Shown in pieces: positions 1 through 52,870 of a stretch of 64,000 nucleotides of DNA. Below the pieces are notes generated by a model. The model searched no databases. It saw nothing but the letters and a program-made list of their open reading frames with translations, and was not told where the DNA came from. Numbering within the stretch: the first letter of the stretch is position 1; each line of letters begins with the position of its first letter. The stretch spans positions 84,258,001-84,322,000 of the forward strand of contig CM097885.1 in assembly GCA_044892525.1 (NCBI GenBank), given 5' to 3'. Made by a program: the position numbers and the translations under genes. Source of the stretch: Schmidtea polychroa. Lineage: Eukaryota.

Positions 1-830
1 GGTCCTACATTGGCAACAGCGTCGGCTAAATCTGTTTCATTATCAGTTTTTATATTTACTGGTTTATAACATTTTGTAATAATTTTAGATTTATTATATA
101 AACATCTTCCTTTCTAAATTACCATAGATATGAGTTAATTCATCAATTCAACAAATATCAGACTTTTGCGGTATATGGATAACTTTCCTCAGATTCAATG
201 CCATAGGTTCTGATATAATTGAACGCAATATTCATCCATCCTCCTTGACAACCAAAATTTGCAGTATTACAATCAACCAATTGTTGTTCAGAGAAATTTC
301 CAAGCACTTTATATTTTCGAAAGTATTGTCCTTCCATAGCGCCAGTTGATGAAAATGCCCAACATGATCCACAATTACCCTAAATAGTAAAGAATTATCA
401 AATTCCTATTTTTACCGAATTACGTCACTTGGTCTTTCACATTTGTCACGTATCCTTTTTTTGTCCAATCAACTGTTTCCGGTAATTCTTTGATACTTAA
501 CGGTGGCTGGTATTCAACTTCCGGTTTTTGTTTGATGAAATTGGAAGACAAATACATTAATTTGAATTCGTCTTGTGTCATGTCTGCAAATTCATTTATT
601 CCGAGGGAAAAAGAAATTTGCCCCAAATCAAATTTTATGTTGTGTTCTTGAATATATTTCAGATTTTCCTCCCATATCAGTCTTCGTGATAAATCATTGA
701 GACCTTCGTATATCTTCCCAAATGTTGACTTGAATGACGCCCATTCTTTATTCAGGTCTTGATTTACAGTTATTCTCTTAGTAGAAACTAGTAGTAGTTT
801 TATAGCTATAATAAATATTAGTAATTTCAT
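1..830 (-). CDS. Cathepsin L-like papain-family (C1A) cysteine protease, 3' end outside the window. Exons 830-429, 379-164, 113-<1
   Basis: Signal peptide, I29 propeptide (ERFNIN-like [16 protein letters not shown]; GINEFAD), mature start LPETVDW. After a 49-nt GT-AG intron (428-380) the frame continues [10 protein letters not shown] (catalytic Cys), then SEQQLVDC and GCQGGWM. After a 50-nt intron (163-114) it reads KGRC...VANVGP. Confidence 0.95.
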
Positions 831-1545
831 TTTGACGAAAATGAAATTTCCGTTTGTAAATTACATTTTATTTATAATTTAAGGTCAAAGTTCATTTTAA
901 AATAATAATCAAATTGTGGTCGCATTCTATTAATAAAACTTGAATCGAAATATTTTTCACATCCGTACTTATCTTATCACTTATGGAAAGGTATAAATAA
1001 ATATTATTAATACTAATTTATTTAAACAAAACTTAAATATATTTAAAACAAATATTATATTGTTTATGTTATCTGATATCACAAGGTCCTTTAATTTAAT
1101 TCATATAAATTAATTTTTATTAAAATAATTTTGTCCAATCATATTTTGACGATTTTTAATGAATATTCTAAAAAGAAATCTGATTCGAACACAAATGCAC
1201 TACCGAGAAATGTTGTCATGTATATAATGTTAAATTATCCATGAAGACCCAAAGGCGGAAAATTAAAAGGAAATATGATTAATTTGATAAAAGGCTTCAA
1301 AGAAACCTTTGGAAATTAAAGACAAAATGAAGTTATCATAGAAGTTAAGATTTCTTTACTTTTCTATGACGAGAAGATTTCATTGATATTAGAAAGAAAT
1401 AAAACTTGGATGAGAAAATTAGACTTCGGAAGGTCAATATCGGTTATCACACATATACCATCTCCCCTTAAAAAGCTCCCGTGTAGCGATTTCGTGAAAT
1501 GAGTTTCCACGCGCTGGTCGAACATATTATCGCGTATTATTGGGT

Positions 1546-2170
1546 TGTACGACAATCCGCCAAACGACAATCCACCAAAGCGACAATCTGCCAAAAAGTC
1601 GATAAATTTTTGTTTTAACATACATACATTTTAAATTTATTATATTTTTAAAATTTTAATAATAAATTCTCCGCTGAAAGATAAGAATCAACTAGTAATT
1701 GTTTAATATAAAATTTTAATTAAATATTTAAACAATTTAACTGGCTGAGAGGTAAACAAGATTTTTTATCAAAATTTGTGATAATTTGACTGATTCAATG
1801 ATAAATTTGAATGAGTTAATTCGTTTTATTATATATACTCTGAGTTTATCCGACAAGATGTTTTGACCCACTATGGGTATTGCTCACAAGAGTACTACTC
1901 AGATTCAACATGTCGCAAAGGTACTGGTATTTGATTTTAATGCTTTTATTTGAATGATTATTTAGGCAAATTTGTTGTACAAGTACATGTGAATTAATTT
2001 TAATATGATGACCTACAAATATTTTTTTTATAAATGTTAGCGTTGGCCAATTTTTTAGTGTTGGTGGATTGTCGTGTTGGCAGATTGTCTGTTGGCGGAT
2101 TGTCATTTGGCGGATTGTCGTTTGGCAAATTGTCGTACTTGCTGGATTGTCGTGTTGGCGGATTGTCGGA
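1546..2170. mobile_element. Non-autonomous foldback/MITE-like element with modular inverted arms
   Basis: Three copies of about 15-bp GACAATC(C/T)GCCAA at 1550-1597 face about seven inverted copies TTGGC(G/A)GATTGTC at 2055-2167. The interior is non-coding. No TSD was verified. Confidence 0.6.
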
Positions 2171-3599
2171 ATACGTTATTATTGATGTAATTTCTGATTA
2201 TATTCAGATATATTTTTTGCTTTTTAGACTATAGTTATAAGCACTGAAATATCTTTCACCGGAAAAATGTAATTATTTATTTTTAAGAGTTAAATGCAAT
2301 TTCTGACTATCATCAAATGGGGTTTTTGGTTATTCTTAATATTGAAACCATATTTTGTCCAGACATCCTACATGAAAAAAATGTGTTCTTTGACGACAAA
2401 CAAGAACATTTACAAAAATCGAGGAAAAGATTTCTTTTCAATAGACTTTTTGCGTTGATTAAGGAACGTTTTTGGGAACATTGGGAACGCAACATAATTA
2501 GTCAAGACATTCTTCATGAAAAAGTTGTATCTTGATTCAACTAAATAAAATCTGGAATAAAACCATCTGTAGTGAGCAGTTAGACGGTTCCATTGTATTT
2601 TATAAAAATTTTATATGCAAAATAGAACGTTATTTTCCATTCACCGAAATTGGAAATTGTTCAGAATTATATGTTCGAAAACAACCAGATTACTATGAGC
2701 CAGTGATATTTTCCAATACTCTTCTACGGGTAATCTTTGCTATGCATATTCACCGCTGTGATTCAATAAGCATCAATGACTTTGAAAATGTATCCAACAA
2801 ATCGGTAAACAAGCATCCGTCAATTCTTCCGTCAATTGCCACCTACTTGACCGCGTTCGATCAAATAAACCTCGATGAAAATGTTTTCTTTTGTTTTTCA
2901 TTTCGTTGCCAGTCTCAAAGAGATAAACTATCAAACGATAAGCTGACATCGAACATCTCTCAATTTAACATCGATTATTTAGACTCTTTTTTTTTAAAAA
3001 TATTTTAATATAAAATAAAATATCATTTTTGACTTTATTATTTATAAACATTTTAATGTAAAATCGACCATCCTCCATTCTTTCGCGAGCGTGAAAAAGT
3101 GCTGCTATGGGTATCACTGATAAGAGTGCGATGCAGGCGATACAAATCATCGGGGCCCGAGATATAATCATATGTGGCATTTTTATATAATTAAATAATT
3201 TTAAAAATCTAAGTTTGCGATAATTTAAGCTTATATGTATCATGGAATTACATAAGTAATAAGTAGGATAACTAAAACAAATGTTTTTAAAAATATATAT
3301 CAGTTTGATTTTCCAAAAAGGGCCCGTACTGACGAATTATATCGGGGGCCCGGCCTGGCCCTCAACGGTCCTGTAATGGACCCCAGCACTCTTTAAAATT
3401 GGGTATCCAGTGGGACAGTGTAAATGGGAATGCAATAGCTGAGTCTTTGCGAGTTTGTTCAACGTTGAGTGGAAGCGGAGTGGTGGATTTTGAGGATTGT
3501 TTTTGTCGGATGGGGGAGAGTAGGAGGGAGATTAATTATATTATAGGAGAAAGGAAAGATAATGTGTTCCATTTGGCATTTATTGAGAGATTAACGAAA

Positions 3600-4036
3600 C
3601 GAGGATTTGAAGTATTGTTAAAGGTTGATCTAATTGATAAATATGTTGTGCAAATATTGAAAGAGTATGACGATAAGAAATTAGTATGGGTAACTAAAGA
3701 AGATGGTGAGATAGACCAGCAAAGGTTAATTGATTACAACAAGAATCTAATAGACACAGGAATATTATCTGATTATGATATACAAAACGATTCTGAACTC
3801 CATTTAGTTTTGTGATTTAGACGTAGCAAGAAAATATTTATCAAAACTCCTACTAGTAAGACAATTACTCTAGACGTTAAATTGAGTGACACGATTGAAA
3901 AATTAAAAAAAATAATTCCTGTAGATAATCAAAAGTTAGTCTACGCGGGAAAGAAATTGAAAAATAAAAGAATATTGACCGATTATAACATCAAAGTAAG
4001 ATCAGCAGTTCACTTGTTGCTCAGGCTGTGCGGTGG
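3600..4036 (+). pseudogene. Tandem ubiquitin-like domains (two units, one in-frame TGA at 3813-3815) fused to a Pao Gag
   Basis: Unit 1 ends DQQRLIDYNKNLIDTGILSDYDIQNDSELHLVL*. Unit 2 is [24 protein letters not shown]...[36 protein letters not shown]. Both align to ubiquitin and share one reading frame (66 nt between the TGA and ORF 3882). Confidence 0.85.
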
Positions 4037-4857
4037 AAACAAAGACGAGATTTTAGAAGAGGGATTATCGAAAAAGAAAATGCAAAAAGGAAAATTAACG
4101 AGATTGAGAAACAAGATTCTCAACGATATAAATGGGAAGAATGTCAGCGAATGGTTGGACGAATATGAAAATCAAAAGGAGAGTCTAGAGGAAGAAATGA
4201 GGCATCTGAGAAGTATCAGTAAAAAATTGCAAAGATTGGACATCATTGCTGTATTCGATAAAGATGTGTAATTGATCGAAGAAAAGCATCAAATGATTGG
4301 TGGCAAAAAAGGCAAATCAATCTTTTAAAGAATGAGAATGATGAAACAATCAAGAAAATAATGCAGTGCCTAAAAGAAGACTGGAAAGCCTACAAAAGAT
4401 TACAATACCTGTCTTTGAAGGTAAAATGAAAGAGTACGGACCATGTGAAGAAGCTTTTACTGTGTGTGTAGACGAAGTAAAATGGAGAAAATATAAAAAA
4501 GATATTTCACCTGCACAAGTACTTTTACGTAGATCCATTAAAATTAATAGAAAACTTAGAATATTCGGCAGAGACCTATCAAATGGCTAAAGAGAACCAG
4601 AATAGACTATATGGTAGGGATGAAAGAATATATATCTATCAATGTTAGAGAAGATGGACAAGTTCAGGCCAATTCGAGAAGGAGACATGAAGGATTTAGA
4701 TTTGTTTGTTGGACTATTAGAAACAGTCACTGTTCGCTTTAAATTCACTGGAAAAGAATCCGAGTTGAAGACTGGATGTCCTTTTCAAATATTTTTGGGA
4801 AGATTAACCACAAATATGTTTTACAAATGGAAGAAAGCCAAATGGAAAAGGTCTTGA
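4037..4857 (+). mobile_element. Degenerate BEL/Pao retrotransposon gag (DUF1759-type)
   Basis: [12 protein letters not shown], then LQKITIPVFEGKMKEYGPCEEAFTVCVDE, and after a frameshift FHLHKYFYVDPLKLIENLEYSAETYQMAKENQNRLYG...DKFRPIREGDMKDLD. These match Pao Gag motifs and are paralogous to the Gag piece at 52236-52418. Stops and frameshifts are present. Confidence 0.75.
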
Positions 4858-6189
4858 CTCTAGATAGCGTTAAGGTTAGTTTCACGAATTCTAACCATTT
4901 TCGCGGTGTTCCGTTGTCGTCTGTGAAATAGTTGGGGATATTTGTTTTTGGATTGATTATTGAATTAATGGTATTTGTGTTTTCTGTGCTGCTGTTTGGG
5001 TTGAAATAATAGTTGGTGCTTTACGATTTCTGAGTATTTTCGTAGTTGTTGGGTATTTGTAGAATATTTGTTGGGTTTATTTGGTTTGATGCCATTATTT
5101 TGTTTGTTGATGTTTCTTTTATTGATTGCTGTGCTAAAGAAAATTGAGTTTGTTCAAGGATATGGCTTACTGTGTTCAGTAAAAGAGTCACTATCCTTTA
5201 TACTTTACTTTTGTGTTTTACTTTACAGTGTGCTTTACTTCTGACACCAATTATATTATGTTGTCTTATTGTTATCAGTTATTTATTATTTATCGTGTTC
5301 TTGTTGTGATCTTATTATTATTAATTAATCATTAGTTCTTAGTAGGTTGTTCAAGGTTATAGGATATATTAATTTTATGAATTGTTTCCCGGCTATTTTG
5401 TAACTTTTTATGTGAAGAGAATGCGTAGAGCCCGGCAGAGTCTCTAGTAAAAATATGTGGTGGGACAGTCGGGGTACTTGTATATATTGCTTTATACAAC
5501 CTGAGTGGAAAAAATACTAAAATAATAACAAAATAATAACGAAATGTAACTAACGAATAATGTTTTAATAAAAATCAAAAAGAAAAAAAAATAATTAAGT
5601 ATTTTCGGTAATACTTTCGTATAGTTCGTCTAGAATACTTTCTTTTCCTCAGCTCGATAATTCGGGGTCGAATTCTTCGTTTAAATATACAGAAGATAGA
5701 CACGAAAAAAATATATTTGATTTTGATATCTTTTTCATTATAATAATATTTATTTTTACTTTCTTTGTCTTGAATGTTCTTTTACAATCACTTGTGATCT
5801 TTAGCTTAATATCTTGAATGATCTTTGCCAATGATTTGTAATCTTTGGTTTAATCTGTAGACTTTAATAGACTTTAATTTTTCTAATTTCTTTTTCTTGA
5901 TTGATTTTTTTCGTATTTTATATTTTTCGATTTTGTGAATTCTCTATAGTAAATTATTACTATGGAGAATTAATATATAGGTCTTTTAATTATATCGCGG
6001 GGTCCATGACTCGAATTAAGTTAGATCGAGTATTTTGTATTTGTATTAAAAAATATATATATATTAACCATTAACTTTATTTTACAAATACAAATTACAA
6101 ATATTTAAAAGGGTATGCATTACAAGCATATAATAATTTAGAGTGCAAGGGTAGAAAGCCGAGCCGAGTAACGAATTTAAAGCGATATC

Positions 6190-7727
6190 TACAACGTTAT
6201 CATCCAAATGTTTTCAAAACTGACGTGTGAACGTAAAGTTGAACGTACACCAAGTTCTTCATGCAAAGCATCTGTAACCAAATTTTTTAAGTCTGAATAT
6301 GTTACTGTGGCTATGACTGCAGGAAAAAAACTGCATCATCAAAATGGTGGTTTCAAATTCTTTACCGTTAGTATTTTTCTCTTCTCCTGCTTTTGTCTCT
6401 TTAAATGGCGAAATGGCTCGCAAATTTGGCATTTTTTTAGAAAGAAGTAATATTAGAAATTTTGTACTACAAGTGGCAAAACAGCAGAAGAATATGCTCA
6501 CGAATTTTTTAGGTGACCGGTTTCTTTTATGAAGATGGACGGATGTACCCATAACAGTGTTAATTATTTTGCAATTAACGTCCAGTTCCTCGATGACAAA
6601 AAAAGTTGTTACACGAACTTTGGCGGTATGGGATACTGAAGCGCGTCATACAAGCACCTATTTGCAAAAACTAGTTATGAATGTTCTTACAGAATTTTGT
6701 ATTAATAAGGAACAAATATTATGCATTGTGACCGATAATGCCACCAATATGCTCAGCACTGTAAAGAAGCTTAATGAAAATGTAGCAGCACTTAATTTAG
6801 ATGGATTTGTGGATGATGCTTTAGATATTTCCCAGATACATCACATGCGCTGCGCTTTGCATACATTGCAACTGACAATTCGTTAAGAATGGTGTAATCT
6901 TATTTTCCGTTTTTCTAATTCTAATTGTAAAATAGCTGATGGAATCAAAAATTCAATGATACGCAGAGAAAGTATCCTCCTAGACAATGACATATTACTA
7001 GCGGGTATCTACGTTGATCCTATGGTCCGAGTGTTACTTACCAGAGAACGTCAAATTAGAGCTAAAGATGCTTTGTATGAATTAGCCATTGGAATCAAAG
7101 GTATAGGTTTGCAAGATGAACAACTTATTGATATATTTTCATCTTCATCAAATCTAATTCCTGGGGCCGTTGTAGAAAATGATTTTGAAAAATATTTAGA
7201 TGATCAAGTGCAGTCCAAGTGTCGTTGTTTAGGGTTAGATAGAAGCGGAGAAACTACAACATTCTTAGGTAAATTTAAAATAGACTTTTACCAAGCTTTA
7301 AAAGAGGTAGAGAAATTTGAACGTTATTCAAATTTAATTCAAGAAGCTGCTCTGACCGCGATGGCATTGCCGCCGACACAAGTCTCCACAGAACGGTTAT
7401 TTTCTACACTCAGAATCATCAGATCCGATTTGAGAGCATCAATGAAGCCAGATATTATTGAAGCTACTTTATTTCTAAGGACAAATAATGCAGATTAATT
7501 TTTTAATTTTGTTATTTATAAAGTTTTGTTTATTATTAAAAGATTTAATAAAAATAAATAAATATTGATTCATTTCTATTAATTATTGTCACCATGTTGA
7601 TAAATATATCCATATTCGTTTAGCTTTGGAGTCGGAGTTGAAGTCGGAGTCAGCGTTGTACTCTGAAAATTTCAACGTTGGAGTCGGAGTCGGAGTTGGT
7701 ACTTTTTTTTATGACTCCACACCCCTG
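6190..7727 (+). mobile_element. hAT transposon remnant with right terminus
   Basis: Fragments carry IVTDNATNM, CALH (CxxH) and the hATC dimerisation motif PPTQVSTERLFS...LFLRTN. The right end has GGAGTCGGAGT subterminal repeats and terminates GACTCCACACCCCTG at 7727. The left TIR was not found. Confidence 0.85.
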
Positions 7728-8213
7728 ACCAAAACTCAACATGGATATCAGCAAAAGATCAAGTAAATTTCTATACTATTTTAAATTGCGAAAAAGTTGT
7801 TCACCAATTTATCCAAACAATGAAGCCAACAAATTCATAATCGATCTTCAAAACCATATAAGAGAAGTTAATTTTGACTCAAATTTTTTTAGAATACAAT
7901 CGTAGAGTTAAAGTAATTGAAAAATTAATTGAACCTTTAAAATACAAAAATTTAATGAACTAAACTTGTGCTATTTCATTTTAATTTAGATTTTTTGCAC
8001 TTCCTCATTTAAATATCAATTTAAAGTCTCAAGCATTTAGTTTAAATTTTAGGTTTTTAAAAATCATAATCCCAAATATTTTTTGTAGAATTTATCGCAA
8101 CATATCTTAATCAAAAAGTTCCAAACTCTAAATATGAAACTATATTTCTCACCAATGTTTTAAAGAATTTTGTTTTAATATTACTTTATAAATTAATGAT
8201 TTATGCATAATTG

Positions 8214-11476
<3,263 letters not shown>

Positions 11477-19685: not shown

Positions 19686-20427
19686 TTATATATATATATA
19701 TATATGTTTCAATTTAACAAGCATCAGATCATTTTTATTGAAACTAAAAACATCCAAACTGTTTTTCAGAAGGCAACATTTGATTACAACTACGAAGCCA
19801 CTGGGATCAGTTTTGAATAATAACGGTTTGTCCATTTCAATATCATAAGATAATGCCATCATTGAACAACTTAATAATCGCATCTCAGCCGACTGGGTGT
19901 TAAGCTGATTAATATCCGCAATACAACGACATATTACATCACAAGGCATTTCATATCCATTTTTATATTTAAATCGAGCTGCTTCCATTTGTGCACGACA
20001 TACTTGAGATCGATAATCAGGGATCATACCAGTCATAACACCTCCAGTACTTTCAGTGATATTAAACAATCTTGTAGCTGAACTCTTTTCAATCATTTTA
20101 TCTGGAACTTTTCTTTTTGCAACAATATGCACCACACAACTAATTTTCCTAGCAATGAATATCTCTAATATAACGCTATCTGAGTGCTTTTCCAAAAAGC
20201 ATTCCAAACTCCCAATCCAAATTTTATGTTTATCGTTAAATCTGAAACGCTTCATTTTATCATTTCGAATAATATTTTGGTAAATCATTTGAAAATAGAA
20301 AACACCAATTGTGCTTATGTAACTTTCAGTATAAGTATCATCTGCAAATCTGAGTAATAAACAAGATTTTCCAACACCAGAATCTCCAATTAATAGAAGC
20401 TTGAATAAAGTCATACTCTGGATTCAT
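19686..20427 (-). pseudogene. Chimeric Rab1 N-terminus + proteasome alpha-6 core ORF
   Basis: 20427-20300 encodes [42 protein letters not shown] (Rab1, 2-nt deletion after EYD). 20160-19780 encodes [56 protein letters not shown]...TQSAEMR...DPSG (PSMA6). One open frame 20414-19686. Confidence 0.85.
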
Positions 20428-20435
20428 TTAATTAT

Positions 20436-21455
20436 TGTCAACGTTCCGGTTTCGATAAACAATTATAATCGTACAAAAAATTCACAATTCCAGAAAATTC
20501 GAAAAAACTGACTCAGCTAAACAAAACTCTAAAAATTCTCTAAATCCAATTAAAATCCAAAATCTAATTAAAAAACATTACAACCATGCGCGTACGCAGA
20601 GGGGGGGGGGTTACTGGGGGTTTAACCCCCCATGATTCCAACAACAATATAAAAAACTATAATTAATAAATATATAAACTTAAAACAATTTAAGAAATAT
20701 TCCGAATGCCGATATATATTTTTACTCTACTTTTGCCTCTAATTTCGTTTTGTTTTGCTCTCAACTTCGTTCTACTTTTCGTTCTGTTTTTGTTTCTCAA
20801 TCTGTTCTTTTTTCTCGTCCACCAGTTCTCTTTATATAGTTGTTTTGCTTGTGGCACTCCAGATAATTGAGTGTTTTTCCACTTTCCATCCCCTGCTTTC
20901 CCCGACTGTCCCATTTTTATCTCTGACAGCTTGTCAAGTTGTTTTTCCCTTTTTCCTTTTTTGTTCGACCGCCTTCTCCCATCAATTCTATCATCACCGG
21001 CAAGCTGTCGAGATAAGGATAAGGATGATTTCAAAATTCCTTTTTCCTTTTTGTACTAATTAATTAGTACTGACCTTGATTTTTATTTTCCTGTTTGATA
21101 ACTTTTATTTTCTTTCTCATTTTTGATTTCTTTTCACTTTCGTTTTCTTTTCAGAGTCTCTATAGATTGTCTTGTTTGTCATGGCGATCTTCCCCCAGGT
21201 AATTTTACTTATTTCTTTATTAATTATTATTTAGGTATCCTCAACATTATATATAAAAATAATATATGTACCCCCCCCCCCCCATGGATTCATCCTGCGT
21301 ACGCGCCTGATTACAACAACCTACTTCTCGCATCTGTGTGCGCACCCCAACAATATTCGATCAAATCATACCGCGCACACAGACGCGAAACAAAGGGAAA
21401 CGTCAAACAAACTGCCAGTCAGAGGTGAGTGACATTCCCCATCTGACTGGTCGAA
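20436..21455 (-). mobile_element. BEL/Pao polypurine tract + 3' LTR (interrupted by a hAT MITE)
   Basis: The reverse complement GTTTCGACCAGTCAGATGGGGAA|TGTCACTCACCTCTGACTGGC...TCGCGTCTGTGTGCGC matches the Pao 3' end at 52762-52860. The LTR ends ...GTTGACA at 20436. Confidence 0.7.
20585..21309. mobile_element. hAT MITE with exact 8-bp TSD, containing an LTR fragment
   Basis: TIRs CATGCGCGTACGCAG and CTGCGTACGCGCCTG. TSD ATTACAAC at 20577-20584 and 21310-21317. Interior 20690-21190 is homologous to the 16.1-kb LTR-like repeat. Confidence 0.9.
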
Positions 21456-21479
21456 ACATATATATATATATATATATTT

Positions 21480-28990: not shown

Positions 28991-29103
28991 GAATCCAACA
29001 GTGGATTTGCTCTCAATGTCATTATCTATGATCATAATTTTTGAGAACTGAAAAGAATGTGAGTTATCGCGCATATCTAATTTTAAGTTTAATCATTGAT
29101 TTA

Positions 29104-30108
29104 CAGAGTTATTCAAAACTATATATTCCTTTATTCAATACTATATATTCATTTATTCAAAACTATATATTCATCTATTCAAAACTATATATCCATTTAC
29201 TCAAAGGTATGATGAAATAATTAATATGCATGATATAATGACTATTACTGTTTGTTTGTTTAATTGGTTTTTAAAGAACGTTAAATATTAAAATTCAAAA
29301 GGCGTCCATGGCAAGGAAGAGTCGCAAAATGGTAACTGTTGAAATGGCGGAAACGATTATTAGAATGGCGCAAAATGATAATATGAAAATAAAAGATATT
29401 GCAACAAGCTTGGATTTCAACAGACAAACTATTCGAAAAGTTTTATCTGATAATAGGAATGGGAGGACATTTGTTGAGGCGAATACTAAATTCAAACGGA
29501 GTATTTTAGAGCGAAATCGAATATTTAATGAAAATGAGCAAGCGCTTTTCAACATAGTGGGTTTAAATAATAGCTTAATTCAAAGTGAGATGAAAGAAAA
29601 AATATCCGAGCAAACTGGAGCAGTAATTTCACAGCCAACAATATGCCGAAAATTGAAAAAACTGAAAATAAGCAGGAAACGACTCTGGTTAATTCCAAAT
29701 GAAAGGAATTCAACAGCAAATATTGAAAGGCGAGCACTATATTGCGCAGAAATTGTGAGAATCCCAAGGGAAAACTTAATATTTCTGGATGAGTCTGGGT
29801 TCAATCAACATCTCAGGCGTGCTTATGGATATTCGAATGTTAACACCCCCGCATTTATATCCGTGCCGGGGAACCGCGGAGTGAATAGGAGTTGCATGTG
29901 TGCCATTGGAAATATATATATATATATATATATATCATGCATATTAATTATTTCATCATACCTTTGAGTAAATGGATATATAGTTTTGAATAGATGAATA
30001 TATAGTTTTAAATAAATGAATATATAGTTTTGAATAAATGAATATATAGTATTGAATAAAGGAATATATAGTTTTGAATAAATGAATATATAGTTTTGAA
30101 TAACTCTG
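29104..30108 (+). mobile_element. Internally deleted IS630/Tc1-mariner element with long modular TIRs
   Basis: TA duplication at 29102-29103 and 30109-30110. TIRs begin CAGAGTTATTCAAAACTATAT and are built of about 21-bp subrepeats. ORF 29308-29967 has HTH regions and LIFLDESGF, then ends in (TA)n without the second Asp or the Glu. Confidence 0.9.
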
Positions 30109-30225
30109 TAAAAGTGATTGACAACCCATACAAAAGAATCCCATTAAAAATATTTATTTAACTTAGGAAATTATGTAATCGACACAAATAATTAATTATA
30201 ACAATGTATCATTTTGACGAATAAT

Positions 30226-34100: not shown

Positions 34101-37100
34101 ATTGTTCGAATAAAATTTTTGAATTTTTCTTGTATATATTATTTTATTTATGTATAAATTTCAAAGTACTAAATTACTGGATTATTCTCTGGAGATACTT
34201 TTTTGCAAGTTGTTTTACCTATGTTTTTTAATGGTCATACATTGTTTCGGTTCAAGACTATTATTCGATTTTGATGCGTTACTATTTCCAAATACTGTAG
34301 CCATTTTGAATTGAATTACCAAATAAATTTAATCTTCCATAATATACCCCGGCTTACCAAAAGTCTCCAGTCAGACAGTTATTTACATATTGCAGTTTAT
34401 GATGAACGTCTGCAGTGCAAATATGAACAGCAATGGGAACAAAGGTCACCAACACATGCTACATGCGCACACATACACACGCATTCACACACATAATATG
34501 ACTACTCACACCAGACACACAAAGGTGATAGCAGTGAGTCATATTAATGAAGGATTGTCATTTTCTTAGAATATGGCTACTTGAATAGAGCTTACAGAGT
34601 TTTATAAAGGCATTATTTACGGATGTTACCTTTATGGAAAAGTCAGTGAAACTGTTACATTGACTGGCCATCCCAAAGGAACTATTAGGAACTTTCGGAG
34701 GAAGTACCGCCAGCACCAGACACATGTCAACAAGCAACGTTCAGGACACCCTAAACTTCTGAATATCCGTATACAACGGCAGCTAAAACGACTTGTGGTG
34801 GCTCATCGTCGGTTCCCCTGTCCAAGTTAGTGTCCACATTTAACACTGACCCTGTGCATGCCAGCATGTCTAGCATTCGTCGCGCATTACATTTCCATGG
34901 TTTCTATGGCAGATACTGCGCAAGAAAGCTTTTCATTACAGAAACAATTCGTCATCGTCGCATGAAGTGGTGCCAAGAGAGGAGTTGGAGAGCCGAACAA
35001 TGGCGCTCAGTCATTTGGAGTGATGAATCACGTTTTACTCAGTTCAAATCTGATGGACAGCAATTCTGCTGGCGTCGTGTAGGAGAACGATTTCACCCTG
35101 ACTGCATCCAGTCAATTGTGATATATGGATGAGGCTCTCTGATGTTTTGGAGTCTTTTCTCAGCTCGTGTAACTGGCCCTCTAGTGAAGTCCAGCAATCA
35201 CATGAAGTCAGTGCAATACCAAAATGAGCCTGTTCCCTTTCTCCCAGAATTTGAGGGGCTCATTTTCCAATATAATATTACACTAATCCATACCTCGTAC
35301 ATTATTAATGAATTATTTCTGCAGCACAGCACCAACGTTTGGATTGGGTTTCACAAAGCCCTGATCTGAATCCTATTGAGTTTCTGTGGGACGTCCTTGG
35401 TAGACGAGTTCACAAAAGGATTCCCAATGCCCGTAATGCATCCGAACTGGAAACGCATCTGCACAAGTAATGGTCACGCATCTCCCCTGATTTCCTGGCA
35501 AAATTGGTCGATACAATGCCTAAACGAGTGCGCCTTGTTATCCAAGTGAAAGGTAATATAACGAAGTACTAACTCTCTCTGCACTACAGACATTCAGTAT
35601 TTGTGAGTGTTTGTGACATTTGTTCCCACTACTATTCATTATAAACTGTCAATTATAGACTGCAATATGTAAATAACTGCCTGACTGTAGACTTCTGGTA
35701 GGCCGGGATATGTCATTTCTGCAATCAATATATGAAAGTGGACTGTCAAGAATCTATATTGGAGTATTTAGTATTATCTCATGATAATATATTATGTTGT
35801 CATTTGTGTTGGATTCAATTTGAAAATGAGCTTGATTTAATTGAGTATGTAAAGAATAATTTCTATTGCAATTTTGAAAACTGTTTCGTTGGGTCAACTA
35901 ATATAAATTAAATAATAATTTATAAAATAAATGCTGATGATGTTTTTATGATGAAATCGTTAATAGTTTACCTTAAATTAATGAAAATAGATTCAAATTT
36001 GACCACACAACAATAGGGAGTGCAAAAGTTAATTATTTAATTAGCAGTAAATGAGGACCTTTCATTTTAGTGTAGTTTATATTTGTATATATAATAAAAA
36101 AATAACAAAACTGACTTTTCAAGAACTAATGGAATGGTCAACAGAGTTCCGGCTGCCACGTCAATTTTAATAGAAAAGTAGTCTAACAATAAATCAGAAT
36201 GACTTATTAAGAGAGCAATCATTTCATCTGCATTCACTCCTTCATATAATTGATCAGTTCCTTGCAATCCATATACGAAAAGATCTTTTAGCAATGTTCT
36301 ATTACCATCATTTTCTGAGACATTTTGATCAATAAGATCGATTTCACCAAAATTACCAAAGTGATGAAGACATAGTTGATAGAAAAGATTGTAATTCACA
36401 ACTTGTGTGTTCAAAAGTAACAAATCTTTATCTCGTTGAACCAAAATCCTATCGTTATCAATCATACCAACATAGACAAGATTTTGCCAATCGCAAGCAT
36501 TAGTTATTTCTATCGATTTCCGTAGATTATCAAGTGTCGTTAGTCCAAATATCCGGTTTTTGTTCTTAGAAACTGGATCTGGAGTTGAATGAGATACCGA
36601 AATAGAATCTGGTTTAGACACTGACTGTGGTTTAACTGGTGTTTCAGATTTGATAAATTGAGGAAACTTAATGATTTCTTTCGGTTTACCAATTGAAATG
36701 ATTGACGTATTCTCCATTTTAAGAGATGGATCATTGCACAAATTCCTCTATAAAATTACACCGATAACACTGCCATTTTTAAAATTATCCAATCAAAATA
36801 TATCAAATCAATTTAACGTCAAAATTAGATTAAGACAATTTACATTGAAAAATATCGAATCAATTTATACTTAGAAATATATCAATATATCAATATAAGC
36901 TGGAAAATATAATAAAGAGTTGCCAAATCAATATTTAAAGTAAGATTGAGAAAATATTGAAAAACATACTTCTTTCAATACTGAGAGAGATCGGTCACAG
37001 TTTGTCGTTGTTGATTTAGTAAGGAATGCATTAATTTTCTGTAATTTTGGGTCGACCCTTATCTTTTCAGAGGGTCTTGTTGATATGGAAACACTGTTAT

Positions 37101-40100: not shown

Positions 40101-42999
40101 GAACACGATATTGAAGAAATGGACCAAGAACAATGAATAGAAATATCACCAGAGGATTTTGCTAAATATGATGAAAACGAAATAGATGAAAAAAGTAATC
40201 ATTTTATTAAACCAGATATAGAAAACTTAGACAAATTTTTGAAAATTCATCCAATACTATCAAATTTGGAAGCAAAATATAATATAAACATAAAGCTATA
40301 TTTTCAGAAAGATAGAGTGCGTCGCTGCTGGTTATCTTTGAATGAAGACATCGGAAAACTGTATTGTGCATTTTATTTAACGTTTTGTAAGAATTCAGAT
40401 CAGTCGATATTTTTTAGCGGTTAAAACATGGTACATGTTAAGGACACATATGAACGAGTTACTGAACATAAGTATTGAAAATCAATAATAGAGATATTTA
40501 TACAATAAATATAAATATATACTAATTTTAGAGCGGGTGATTGAGACTATCAAAGTTAACGGAAAACGTGGTTTAAGTTATCGGAGCATGAACGAGTCAA
40601 CTTCCAAATTACTGAACGATAATTTGGATCATGGAAATTTCTTGGAATAGCAAAGAGGCAGTTTTGTAAACTACTTCGAATTCTGTAATAAGCTCTATTT
40701 CACAAATAATGAAAAAAATATATAGCAATGAAGTATAAAATGCGCACATGTAGAGTATTCAAATTGATACTTAAAAATTGTTATTTTATGAAAATTGAAT
40801 TTTTTTGGTGAATTTTTTTGTTTTGTGCATTTTATTTCATTTTACTTTTTGAACTGACTTCTGTTTACCTCAAAACGTATAGCTATTAAAGAAAAAATTA
40901 ATAACTTTTGAAAGCAAAAAATAACAATAATTGATTGTTAAAACAAAATGTATCTAATGTATCCTAAATTCATTCTCAGTCCAGTCCTGTTTGTATGTTC
41001 TTTGGATAGCTGTGTCAAATAAAAGTTTATTTGTCGTATCCTTATTTTATGAACTATAGTTAAGCTAATTATGTCGAGAAGTATGTAGGTAAAAATAGAA
41101 TCCTCTCCCCCTCTTAACATATAAGAAAATCAAATATTTTACTGGAAACATACATTTAACCGCTTCATGCTTTTGAACGAGTCACGCTCGCGCACTAAAT
41201 ACGTTCCAATTTGTGCTAGCCGGTAACGACTCGCAGCGTCCTATTTTTGCTAACACGAATAACGGTCGTGAAAGTTAGCGACGTATTTTACGCAGTTTGA
41301 ATTGGCCTATAGTTGAGATCGGTCGAGTTTTTGAGCTGCTTATTTCGTTTTTACTATATTGTTTTCACATTTTCGTGTATGTGGACGACCAAACACAAAT
41401 TCAAATACAAATCCATCGCGCATGACAGAACGTCACTTTTTAGAGCGGATACTATCAACAGAAAAAAAACAAAGATGCATCGTGTACTACTCGAAAAAAA
41501 CTACACTGGAAAACGCATACGCCGGGAAAGTCGATACTATTGTCCTGATTGTAATGCCAGTCTATGTTTAACACCACACTTTAAAATCTATTACACTAAA
41601 TTGAATTATTAATTCATCTTTATTTTTAAAAAATTAAATATGCTTAAATTGTTAAATTTTTATGGAAAAATGTATAAACTTTGAATAAAACATTTAAAAA
41701 ACCTGATTTTTTTAAAATACTTTTTATAAAAAAACCCGAGCATTAAGTGGTTAACTGTGTTTATATAAGAATATTCCCTGAAAAATCTTTTAATTAAAAA
41801 GCTTTTGAATTGAATTAAGATCTATTTTGAAAACAATAAAATTTGTGAATTTTTTGGGTCAGTTTTAACGGGTTATAGCTAATAATAATATTCATTTTTC
41901 CAGCATTGAGTTCAACTAAATGATTGAAAGAATCTAGATTCTAGACGATATCCAACATAATAATAATTCATAATAATTAAATTCAAAGGTTCACAATTTG
42001 CAAGTTTATAAAGAATTTAAAATGTTTTATTTTATTTATTATCATTTGTTATTAGTAACCAACTATTGTTTATTTACAATTTTAAACAACGCAATTAGAG
42101 GACTTCAAATCTCATCCACAGCTTTTAGAAATACATTTAAATATAATATTTATTTTATTCGAATGAATAATAATGAATAATAATTTATGAAAATGTAATA
42201 TTTAATGGACTTTAATGTTTTGAAAACAGTAAAATATTGGATTTTTCCTTATTTTATAGATTGTAAAAATAGACAAAAATCAAAAATATGAATATATAAG
42301 ACTAACTTCAAATTTCGTCGGATGAACATTAACATCGATATTTTTTGATGGTAATTGTAAATGCAGAAAAGCAAAAGGGTACGTATGCTTTGGAAGAAGA
42401 TTTCCATAGACATTTTCAATCGATTTTTTCAATAAGTCACAATGGACAAGCCTTTGATTGATAAATAAAATGAATCTGAATTTCCTATTGTTGTAATTGG
42501 GTTTTGAAATACGTCCCGATAAAGAGAAATCTAGTTTGTCATTCTTGAAGTCAATTGTTAATAATTGTTTTGAAAGTTCACCACCAAACAACTCTACTAC
42601 GCAATCTTCTATAGGAGTTTCTGCAACAATTCTCACATCGGGGCTCGAAGTGGCATTGTCATCGATTTTTTTCAGTGTTATCGAACATTTGTGAGCATTT
42701 AGAATTGCATAATTTGAAACAACCTCAACAATTTTTGAATATTCTTCACGAGCACTTTTTAGAGATGCCTTACGAACGGGAATATTGTAAAATAAATCTT
42801 CCACTCGAACAATTGTCCCAGTATTACCGGCACATGGTTTGGGTGGATTAAGCAATTTACTATTTGAAAATTCTGCCTTGTATGCGCATAGAGAATCACT
42901 AGTTTTTGAAGTTATTTGTACATGAGCAACATGGGTAACACTTGCTAACGCTTCACCACGAAACCCAAATGTCGATATTGTCAATAAATCATGAAATTC
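31191..42999 (-). CDS. MLH1: DNA mismatch repair protein MLH1. Exons found: 42999-42307, 37233-36970, 36747-36116, 31494-31191; 5' exons not located
   Basis: [33 protein letters not shown]|[25 protein letters not shown], and the diagnostic C-terminus [11 protein letters not shown]. Splice phases are consistent across the four exons. Confidence 0.93.
32124..32670 (-). repeat. Inverted copy of the gypsy-like LTR at 16102-17117
   Basis: Begins TGTTGGGTTATTGGGTCGG and aligns as reverse complement to about 16620-17117. Confidence 0.6.
33164..33378. mobile_element. Tc1/mariner-type MITE
   Basis: TA-flanked imperfect TIRs CACCAAACTATTTTTTACACG and CGTGTAAAAGAGTTGAGTG. Confidence 0.5.
33549..33905 (+). 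mobile_element. Merlin-derived MITE
   Basis: Perfect about 35-bp TIR GGTACTTCCGTGTTATCTTACCCCCAAAAATTAAA. Near-perfect 8-bp TSD AGAAATTT/ATAAATTT. The interior retains EFMWRKR...DVFDTIL, resembling the IS1595/Merlin C-terminus. Confidence 0.8.
34347..35708 (+). mobile_element. Full-length but inactivated Tc1-like element
   Basis: Long TIRs (CCCGGCTTACCAAAAGTCTCCAGTCAGACAGTTATTTACATATTGCAG) with TA flanks. The transposase relic has [12 protein letters not shown], and [11 protein letters not shown]...MPKRVRLVI. Stops and frameshifts are present. Confidence 0.9.
37973..39018 (-). mobile_element. Probable further, shorter copy of the TGTTGG/CCAACA family
   Basis: Starts TGTTAGG and ends CCCCAACA after a T-rich tract, like the 14321-15908 copy. 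Flanks ACTA/AATA are an imperfect TSD. Weak internal similarity near 38140-38230. Confidence 0.4.
39680..40660 (+). mobile_element. hAT (Tip100/ZMYM1-like) transposase remnant
   Basis: RRCWLS...KLYCAFY (TTF-type zinc finger) and VIETIK...GLSYR...DHGNFLE are characteristic of this hAT subgroup. Confidence 0.65.
41160..41750 (+). mobile_element. Non-autonomous piggyBac element
   Basis: TTAA on both sides (41156-41159, 41751-41754). TIRs CCGCTTCATGCT and AGCATTAAGTGG. Retains the C-terminal cysteine-rich domain (RHFL...RC..., [24 protein letters not shown]). Confidence 0.85.
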
Positions 43000-52099: not shown

Positions 52100-52870
52100 T
52101 GCGTGCGAGGATAAAATTAAAAAAACTATATAGCGATAATTTAGCAAATTATTATTATTATAGACAAAAGCATTGCCTTACAGCTTCCGATATTTAATGG
52201 AAGGGTAATGGAGTCATCCTGGATGGCGAGCAATTGTGAGAGTCTACACCGAGGACACAGGTGAACCCAGCGAAAGGAAATACTTGTACTTGAGACAGTA
52301 TTTGGAAGGGAAGCCACTGCAATTGATTGCCTATATTGGATATGGCTCACAGGTTTTTGAAGCTGCAATGAAACTATTGGATGAGAGATATGGAGATCAG
52401 GACGATCATACTCAATGATGCTAGACGCGTTGCAGAGGTTCTGTCCAGTGAGACTCAATGTATTGGAGGACCTAGGGCGGTTTAAAGAGCTACTGGGAAA
52501 TATCATCCTGAATTTCAAGGACCAAAAGAGAGAAGAGGAATTAAACAACGGAATTTGAATGGCTATTGGATGATGGATTGTGTAAGAAGATGTGGAAGCT
52601 TGGGCGAGTAGTGGAAGTCTGTCCCGGTAAACATGGACACGTCCGAGTGTTAAAAATATTTAGTAAAGGTAAAGAGTTATTGAGACCAATAACTAAGGTT
52701 TGTCCCCTAGAGTTAAATAGGGTTGTTTATCCTCTGGAAGAGATCAAGGAGGGGAGAAAAGTTTCGACCAGTCAGAGGAGGGAATGACTTCTCACTCTGG
52801 CTGGCTATGTGCGCATTGTTATTTCGTTTTTGTCGCGTCTGTTTGCGCGTCACTGTTAAACTTCTGTCAT
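52100..52870 (+). mobile_element. Internally deleted BEL/Pao retrotransposon
   Basis: Gag YLRQYLEGKPLQLI...FEAAMKLLDERYG, integrase C-terminus WKLGRVVEV.PG.HGHVRV...LLRPITKVCPLE, then PPT GAGGAGGGAA and an LTR start. Confidence 0.8.

Follow-up and report, generated by a model that had tools for sequence, protein, structure and literature searches.

A diverged ubiquitin precedes Gag in planarian BEL/Pao retrotransposons whose LTRs carry host coding fragments

Two BEL/Pao families of Schmidtea polychroa carry a diverged ubiquitin directly before Gag and in its reading frame, and the pattern of its changes indicates that host ubiquitin has become a selected part of Gag across lineages that are only 29–47% alike. 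Both LTRs of these elements carry exchangeable fragments of host coding sequence, also in frame with Gag. The usual view is that a retrotransposon cleaves Gag-Pol with a protease of its own and admits no host sequence to the capsid frame. We favour, by a modest degree, a reading in which the ubiquitin would be a cut site for host deubiquitinases (DUBs) that frees Gag from a variable host-derived leader.

The window, i.e. the whole 64,000-nt stretch of DNA analysed here, is AT-rich (30% GC) in a genome of 781 Mb and holds what its sequence identifies as a decayed, truncated copy of a BEL/Pao LTR-retrotransposon family. The copy extends over approximately 3023–4851 on the forward strand and is split by a 260-bp insertion. 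It begins with a remnant of the leader that runs from the primer site to a piece of HSP90 (3023–3110, +), which matches siblings L164, L165 and L167 at 80–89% and 5' of which the copy is cut off. The insertion of ~260 bp (3111–3367) has no counterpart in three aligned siblings, in which the flanking parts adjoin, and its GGGCCC-rich ends suggest that it is likely a small DNA-transposon derivative. A single reading frame with a lone internal TGA at 3813 runs from 3333 to 4271. It contains a captured fragment of the middle domain of host HSP90 in the Gag frame (3368–3701, +; PF00183 at 3387–3722, E 8.4e-25), which shares 74% nucleotide identity over 307 nt with the host gene L149; a partial ubiquitin comprising residues 33–76 (3696–3827, +), placed by alignment and sibling codons, in which the TGA (3813–3815) occupies the position of Arg72 and the Gly-Gly is replaced; and a Gag-proximal ubiquitin in which Met1 is changed to Lys (3828–4037, +; PF00240, E 5.4e-15). 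HSP90 and ubiquitin are joined at a site where both proteins read K-E-G. A deletion of six codons around residues 29–35 of the Gag-proximal unit is found in the window copy alone among eight aligned rows. The LRLCGG end of this unit passes in the same frame into a Pao-type Gag (4038–4851, +), where the next stop lies at 4269. This Gag has ~80% nucleotide identity to the copies with long frames described below and comprises an N-terminal region predicted to be helical and a DUF1759 region, the domain having been scored in sibling copies.

The first-pass annotation had described 3600–4857 as a tandem di-ubiquitin fused in frame to Gag. This holds for the second unit, with its LRLCGG end running into Gag. 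The first unit is partial and lies behind the HSP90 fragment, whose end occupies 3600–3700; it aligns locally to host residues 33–74 only and leaves a weak Pfam ubiquitin trace before the TGA (E 0.0095), so that Pfam and alignment together rule out a full di-ubiquitin in the window copy. The Gly-Gly of unit 1 is missing in all seven copies that retain this unit, and Met1 of the Gag-proximal unit is likewise missing in all seven copies compared (the window and six siblings). The suggestion that the TGA was once CGA is borne out by the siblings, five of six of which read CGA at this codon, while the sixth reads CTA.

The copy was also called dead, which agrees with its state. It has two in-frame stops, ~three frame changes between 4300 and 4650 (the positions of the breaks being approximate, with a tblastn query that was off-frame) and a cut-off at 4851, and its Pol domains are absent with the truncation. 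Neither an LTR nor a primer site belonging to it was found in the 10 kb upstream of the window or in window positions 1–9000. The window copy belongs to an older subfamily that retains the HSP90 piece (L002 and L164–L167), and in younger copies of the same family, family A, the HSP90 piece and unit 1 are reduced to a short leader. The donor of its ubiquitin units is left unfixed by best matches of 77/114 and 55/72 nt to units of the host gene L052, values barely above those of other units.

Further pieces of the same system occur in and near the window, among them a lone, interrupted LTR with Rab1 and proteasome-alpha pieces (19778–21459, −), the 246-codon frame at 19686–20423 being LTR cargo and not a gene. 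A fragment of the Gag of family B, described below, is followed by the start of an LTR at 52176–52849 (+), and another family B fragment (L163) lies ~350–1,100 nt before the window. The window also contains Radical SAM, Radical_SAM_C and GNAT matches in three overlapping frames (10094–11476, +), presumably an ELP3-like sequence present as a frameshifted intronless copy or through an assembly error; two MLH1 domain matches 5.5 kb apart (36067–36747 and 42280–42999, −), which are probably exons of a host gene; an element with 129-nt inverted arms, 97% alike, built of 22-nt repeats around an HTH frame (29100–30112); and a hAT dimerisation domain (6887–7498).

Genome-wide searches showed that the fusion is a feature of the element, as had been proposed from the window alone. 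All 40 scored DNA matches (of 368 candidates) cover the ubiquitin-Gag junction, the other 39 being 78–85% identical to the window. Among the 150 scored matches to Peptidase_A17 (the Pao domain), 11 sit in frames of 1,900–2,238 codons that remain open through ubiquitin and Gag into Pol, and most of these frames start inside the 5' LTR. Each of the 11 copies has a single ubiquitin before Gag (ending GG in 10 and GS in one) and LTRs that are 99–100% alike, and the family is abundant and recently mobile. The genome-wide check of the junction thus returned repeated insertions that share it, and the family-wide junction and the 11 long frames rule out a chance insertion beside a polyubiquitin pseudogene. 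A functional tandem in family A did not survive the same comparison, since unit 1 is partial and has lost its Gly-Gly, the long-frame copies carry one unit, and a true tandem occurs only in family B.

Family A has the BEL/Pao domain order: Gag, RT (RVT_1), Peptidase_A17 (PF05380), Integrase_H2C2 and DUF5641 (PF18701). DUF1759 (PF03564) is present in the Gag of families A and B, and Cys/His zinc-knuckle motifs are visible in the Gag translations. The elements have direct LTRs with TG..CA ends, and 22 of 49 copies passed an automatic check for a 5-bp target duplication, although two of these are probably mis-called and several lie within ATT repeats. The duplication reads ATTAT or ATAAT in eight of the 22 listed, and insertions are found in ATT microsatellites (L033/L034, L041/L042, L064 and others), which are a possible target preference. 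The primer site is complementary to host tRNA-Met, which we take to be the initiator tRNA; a long tandem array of tRNA-Met genes with a 454-bp period (L183–L186) matches it. No sister family lacking ubiquitin was found among 40 Pao-domain loci (~nine without a Gag anchor), in which all readable Gag starts belonged to A or B. Ubiquitin and Gag are covered by contigs from runs whose RNA nature is a guess, and one of these contigs spans the Gly-Gly junction; a transcript, its start and its splicing are beyond what such contigs can demonstrate.

A genome-wide ubiquitin search returned 1,240 candidates, many of them tandem within long frames, and these tandem-ubiquitin long frames belong to family B. 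Compared with family A, family B is 29% identical in Gag and 43–52% in Pol, and it shares the primer site and the LTR cargo. The young family B copies that were fetched have Gag and protease and lack RT, and these copies are probably mobilised in trans. Family B carries a true di-ubiquitin. Its unit 1 is 93% identical to host ubiquitin and keeps an LRLRGG end in 24 of 29 copies. At 0.89–0.99 of third positions, unit 1 and the opening 26–31 codons of unit 2 agree with units 2 and 3 of the host tri-ubiquitin gene L052, a value that falls to 0.38–0.70 after codon 27, whereas the other 11 of the 13 host units compared mostly match at 0.2–0.7; one block of unit 1 also reaches 0.91 against L052 unit 3. 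The remainder of unit 2 is old and ends LGLAGG. Because unit 1 and the start of unit 2 match L052 while the rest of unit 2 is old, the alignments show that the tandem arose by a crossover inside the resident ubiquitin, which imported the preceding host unit of L052. In one family B locus (L105:3113–3264), a deletion has brought the primer site into one frame with the final third of ubiquitin, LGLAGG being kept; this form, without two-thirds of the unit, is known only from a local tandem duplication.

The Gag-proximal ubiquitin is conserved in a specific manner. Gly-Gly is present at 58 of 72 family A junctions (eight of the remainder have point changes and six are frameshifted or replaced) and at 30 of 32 family B junctions, compared with none of the seven upstream units in family A. 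Eight aligned rows from both families and the host share, without exception, the core residues and Leu73, Gly75 and Gly76, despite Gags that are only 29% identical between A and B. The unit is 62–64% identical to host ubiquitin in its C-terminal half and is not a canonical ubiquitin: Ile44, Val70, Arg42, Lys63 and Arg74 are changed in family A, position 74 being Cys in family A and Ala in family B, and Arg72 is Gly in family B. An AlphaFold model from the eight-row alignment, made without a folded host-ubiquitin control, has pLDDT <50 over residues 45–75, and Foldseek matches this model to ubiquitin with rmsd of 3.8–5.6 for most top matches.

Changes shared by at least two copies have an N/S of 0.32 in family A ubiquitin (28 synonymous, 31 non-synonymous, p 2e-5), 0.17 in the old half of family B unit 2 (9 and 4, p 0.002), 0.41 in family B unit 1 (p 0.04) and 0.18 in both Gags. 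In the SNF8 fragment carried by LTRs the ratio is 0.99 (5 and 17); the lack of stops among these 22 shared changes is not significant, with about one expected. Singletons give 1.0–1.2 in ubiquitin, the exception being codons 1–31 of unit 2 at 0.28 (eight changes), and 0.68–0.74 in Gag. Each change was counted once in stop-free units, uncorrected for transitions and in copies that share ancestry. Pairwise dN/dS, calculated from non-independent pairs, was 0.31 for A ubiquitin, 0.25 for B unit 2, 0.62 for B unit 1 and 0.22–0.25 for Gag. The value for the HSP90 piece (0.43) was set aside, as its donor gene has drifted too, and an exon-B piece has too few changes for a ratio (3 synonymous, 4 non-synonymous). 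The contrast of shared changes with singletons indicates that the Gag-proximal ubiquitin is kept at the protein level and that SNF8, the sole well-sampled cargo piece, is not. The changes in ubiquitin are thus inherited under purifying selection, in keeping with the long residence in the element that the first-pass annotation had suggested and at odds with the neutral decay that it had offered as an alternative. In L096, L097, L102 and L111, ubiquitin has clustered K>R, I>V, N>D, Y>C, M>V and Q>R changes within ~20 codons; read at the protein level, this is the pattern expected of A-to-G editing, and it is inherited, with Gly-Gly or Gly-Ser retained.

Upstream of the ubiquitin, the Gag frame continues into LTR sequence of host origin, a context that the first-pass annotation had overlooked. 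Pfam searches of the Gag frame gave a match in eight of 15 LTR frames scanned, to pieces of Rab, proteasome alpha, SNF8, DUSP, TCP-1, SUI1 and LIM; the other frames were gauged by stop-free length only. When the final 660 nt of the 5' LTR were compared by frame, the Gag frame held the longest run without a stop in 81 of 97 copies, many of them picked for long frames and all sharing ancestry, with a median of 193 codons in the Gag frame versus 41–60. The same openness was found in 17 of 24 copies selected for resemblance to the window alone, and for 23 of 29 LTR-end types it holds in more than half of the copies. Of the distinct leader lengths, 12 of 17 in family B are in frame (p 0.002) and, in family A, whose older copies are frameshifted, 13 of 29 (p 0.13). 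Leaders of up to several hundred AT-rich codons are open from an ATG 228–399 nt into the LTR in nine of 15 LTRs examined. A shared motif lies within the first 200 nt of the LTRs and an AATAAA poly(A)-type signal 26–41 nt from the end of 14 of 15, which suggests that the promoter head is short, the cargo-bearing R long and U5 very short.

The L084-type LTR joins three host exons at 97–100% identity across gaps of ~1.5 and 1.7 kb in the donor, the second of which reads GT..AG. Because these two donor introns are absent, at least this piece came from spliced mRNA; the evidence of intron loss comes from one donor, those of SNF8 and HSP90 being uninterrupted over the captured piece. The SNF8 piece, 93–98% identical to the host gene, begins with what is an internal Met in the host protein. 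No donor of the proteasome-alpha piece was present among the loci fetched, and none of the TCP-1 piece above 64% identity in the assembly; the latter piece occurs in ~16 LTR copies (for example L067:1–388). Since an eIF4A-like DEAD-box piece lies in frame between the primer site and the ubiquitins in L071 (9525–9900), capture is not confined to the LTR. With 1,240 ubiquitin, 328 SNF8-family and 232 proteasome-alpha candidates in this genome, hundreds of element fragments will be mis-annotated as paralogues of host genes.

Similar fusions occur outside this genome. Among 156 outside Gag relatives, six have a ubiquitin match immediately ahead of Gag, and the N-terminus of a seventh is a ubiquitin-like tail; named relatives without ubiquitin are from clam and jellyfish. 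LxGG is kept in six of these seven proteins, followed by Ser, Gly or Met, and Gly-Gly is absent from P0129; over all seven the next residue is Ser, Ser, Ser, Ser, Gly, Met and Asn. P0177 has the order HSP90-ubiquitin-Gag, and its HSP90 ends at profile position 348, as in the window. A quick Gag tree places the seven ubiquitin rows in two long-branch groups (87 and 91 support), mixed only with rows cut short at the N-terminus. This tree, which omits P0222 and P0129 for short alignment and in which long branches meet, neither shows nor clearly excludes a single origin of the fusions. A homolog search with ubiquitin and Gag as the query was swamped by polyubiquitins, and Gag-only word searches gave six and three matches, with a ubiquitin domain listed in P0251 only. 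The ESM Atlas returned DUF1759 clusters only (0.80–0.81), which serve as leads.

These observations could be joined as follows, with the DUB processing site that the first-pass annotation had put forward still the best reading. Template switching during reverse transcription would bring fragments of host mRNA into the R part of the LTR, translation would start at the first captured ATG, and only variants in frame with Gag would keep transposing. Cleavage after Gly-Gly would give Gag a constant N-terminus whatever lies upstream, and because a cleavable ubiquitin would make everything upstream of Gag disposable, cargo would be tolerated provided that the frame stays open. Tandem ubiquitin would be a by-product of this process: the resident unit offers homology to host polyubiquitin mRNA, and a template switch there would bring in the preceding host unit, which in the older subfamily of the window copy would later have lost its Gly-Gly and shrunk. 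Applied to the whole lineage, the proposal becomes more tentative, and we place it a little below an even chance: both start codon and N-terminus would be disposable, with host mRNAs sampled into R, in-frame cargo translated and the resulting junk cut off by DUBs at a non-conjugatable ubiquitin that is periodically refreshed from host polyubiquitin mRNA.

The main doubt about a cleavable linker concerns the diverged tail, in which Arg74 and Arg72 are changed, set against the preference of UCH-L3. For this enzyme a narrow, Arg-favouring P3 preference is described in excerpts of bioRxiv 2020.01.30.926881, the same excerpts judging DUBs broad at P3–P4. Moreover, Gly-Gly could persist merely as part of a constrained domain. 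The low confidence of the structural model in the second half of the unit, the leader lengths of family A and the lack of Gly-Gly in P0129 also speak against the linker. The ubiquitin might accordingly be a folded spacer or solubility tag that insulates Gag, uncut by DUBs and either staying on or removed by the element protease, a rather unlikely alternative that nevertheless has to be taken seriously. The changes at Arg72, Arg74 and Arg42 would weaken DUB recognition, purifying selection spans the whole domain core and not the tail alone, and P0129 does without Gly-Gly. On the other hand, Leu73-x-Gly-Gly is kept in eight of nine lineages while positions 72 and 74 vary, the upstream Gly-Gly of family A, which has no Gag behind it, was lost, and the residue after Gly-Gly is never Pro, which blocks cleavage. 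An uncut spacer is further opposed by the fact that an uncleaved N-terminal ubiquitin usually marks its protein for degradation (UFD pathway).

Translation may also begin at an internal ATG just before or at the ubiquitin, giving a simple ubiquitin-Gag fusion like those of ribosomal proteins, with the open LTR frame as a by-product of in-frame capture at microhomologies or of avoiding nonsense-mediated decay. In its favour, a Met stands ~8–12 codons before the unit in many family A copies, unit 2 of family B carries a Met itself, HSP90 and ubiquitin are joined at a motif that both share in frame, and family A leader lengths are not significantly in frame. We consider this start improbable but, like the spacer, worth taking seriously. 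Against it, AT-rich leaders of up to several hundred codons stay open from the LTR ATG in nine of 15 LTRs, and the position of the poly(A)-type signal would put the cargo in transcribed R; it can, in any case, be combined with cleavage at Gly-Gly.

A role of the ubiquitin as decoy or recruiter for ubiquitin-binding host factors (ESCRT, proteasome receptors) or as an N-degron switch, two ideas raised in the first-pass annotation, is very improbable. The host-like unit 1 of family B, with its LRLRGG end in 24 of 29 copies and weak constraint (shared N/S 0.41, p 0.04), would suit a decoy, but family A lost unit 1, and in neither family does the Gag-proximal unit keep the Ile44 patch intact (family A also has changes at Val70, Arg42, Lys63 and Arg74; in family B Ile44 is Asn). 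The Asn after ubiquitin that had suggested an N-degron is not conserved, being Ser in family B and varied in the outside proteins. Least credible of all is neutral cargo fixed by hitch-hiking: the element captures many host fragments, the one examined (SNF8) is neutral, and L105 lost two-thirds of the unit, though only in a local tandem duplication, but shared changes in ubiquitin have N/S of 0.17–0.32 versus ~1 on singletons, and the unit is retained across Gags only 29–47% alike.

If host DUBs do cut after the Gly-Gly, the transposon depends on them, the arrangement is a heritable counterpart of the sporadic ubiquitin signal of pestiviruses, and a cleavable ubiquitin explains how constant gene capture is tolerated. 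The crossover with one host polyubiquitin gene (L052) is a clear instance of homologous mRNA recombination renewing a part of a transposon protein. Should the N-terminus be disposable throughout the lineage, the element would be a standing exon-shuffling machine, its copies would release chimeric host peptides, and host-gene sequence could feed transposon-silencing small RNAs.

No published description of this architecture of ubiquitin-Gag and LTR cargo was found in a search that left Repbase and most subscription journals outside its scope; reference B38 of PMC3118150, an entry in Repbase Reports on a BEL family of planarians, may bear on novelty. The elements resemble BEL/Pao (Belpaoviridae) in having DUF1759 Gag, protease, RT, Peptidase_A17, integrase and DUF5641 in one frame, TG..CA LTRs and a 5-bp duplication, and differ in that the frame starts inside the LTR and passes through ubiquitin. 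They possibly belong to the Flow superfamily of BEL/Pao, for which two planarian families are reported in the survey that defines it, the main text of which does not contain the word 'ubiquitin' (PMC3118150, in excerpt). Neither 'ubiquitin' nor 'Pao' appears in the main text of PMC11410931. The giant gypsy-like Burro/GYPSM1 elements of planarians similarly have a polyprotein with an added Ubi2/SUMO-like motif and other captured domains. However, they belong to another superfamily, their Gag is N-terminal and the ubiquitin-like motif internal, and LTR cargo is unmentioned in the excerpts of their description (PMC6431247).

The type of arrangement known from cytopathogenic pestiviruses, an in-frame ubiquitin with Gly-Gly directly before the next protein, here Gag, occurs in 58 of the 72 junctions of family A and in 30 of the 32 of family B. 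According to excerpts of PMC8310069, host ubiquitin mRNA is inserted in frame ahead of a viral protein, N-terminally truncated and preceded by a scrap of another host sequence, and serves as a processing signal for host hydrolases, which cut the N-terminally truncated ubiquitin of BVDV Osloss, CP1 and CP Rit. Those insertions are sporadic variants of an RNA virus, and their ubiquitin is close in sequence to that of the host, whereas the ubiquitin described here is a fixed, old and selected feature of a retrotransposon, with a diverged tail and putative cleavage. The cargo, in turn, resembles the products of LTR-mediated retroposition, in which, as excerpts of PMC5131818 describe, LTR elements capture mRNA pieces at microhomologies by template switching (a chimera of the Pao element BATUMI included), and maize Bs1 (PMC13317346, in excerpt): all involve partial mRNA fragments of multiple genes, joints at short homologies and renewed mobilisation. 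In those cases, as far as the excerpts go, the retrocopies replace internal frames of the element, whereas here the fragments lie in both LTRs, even of copies with complete frames, and are read into Gag.
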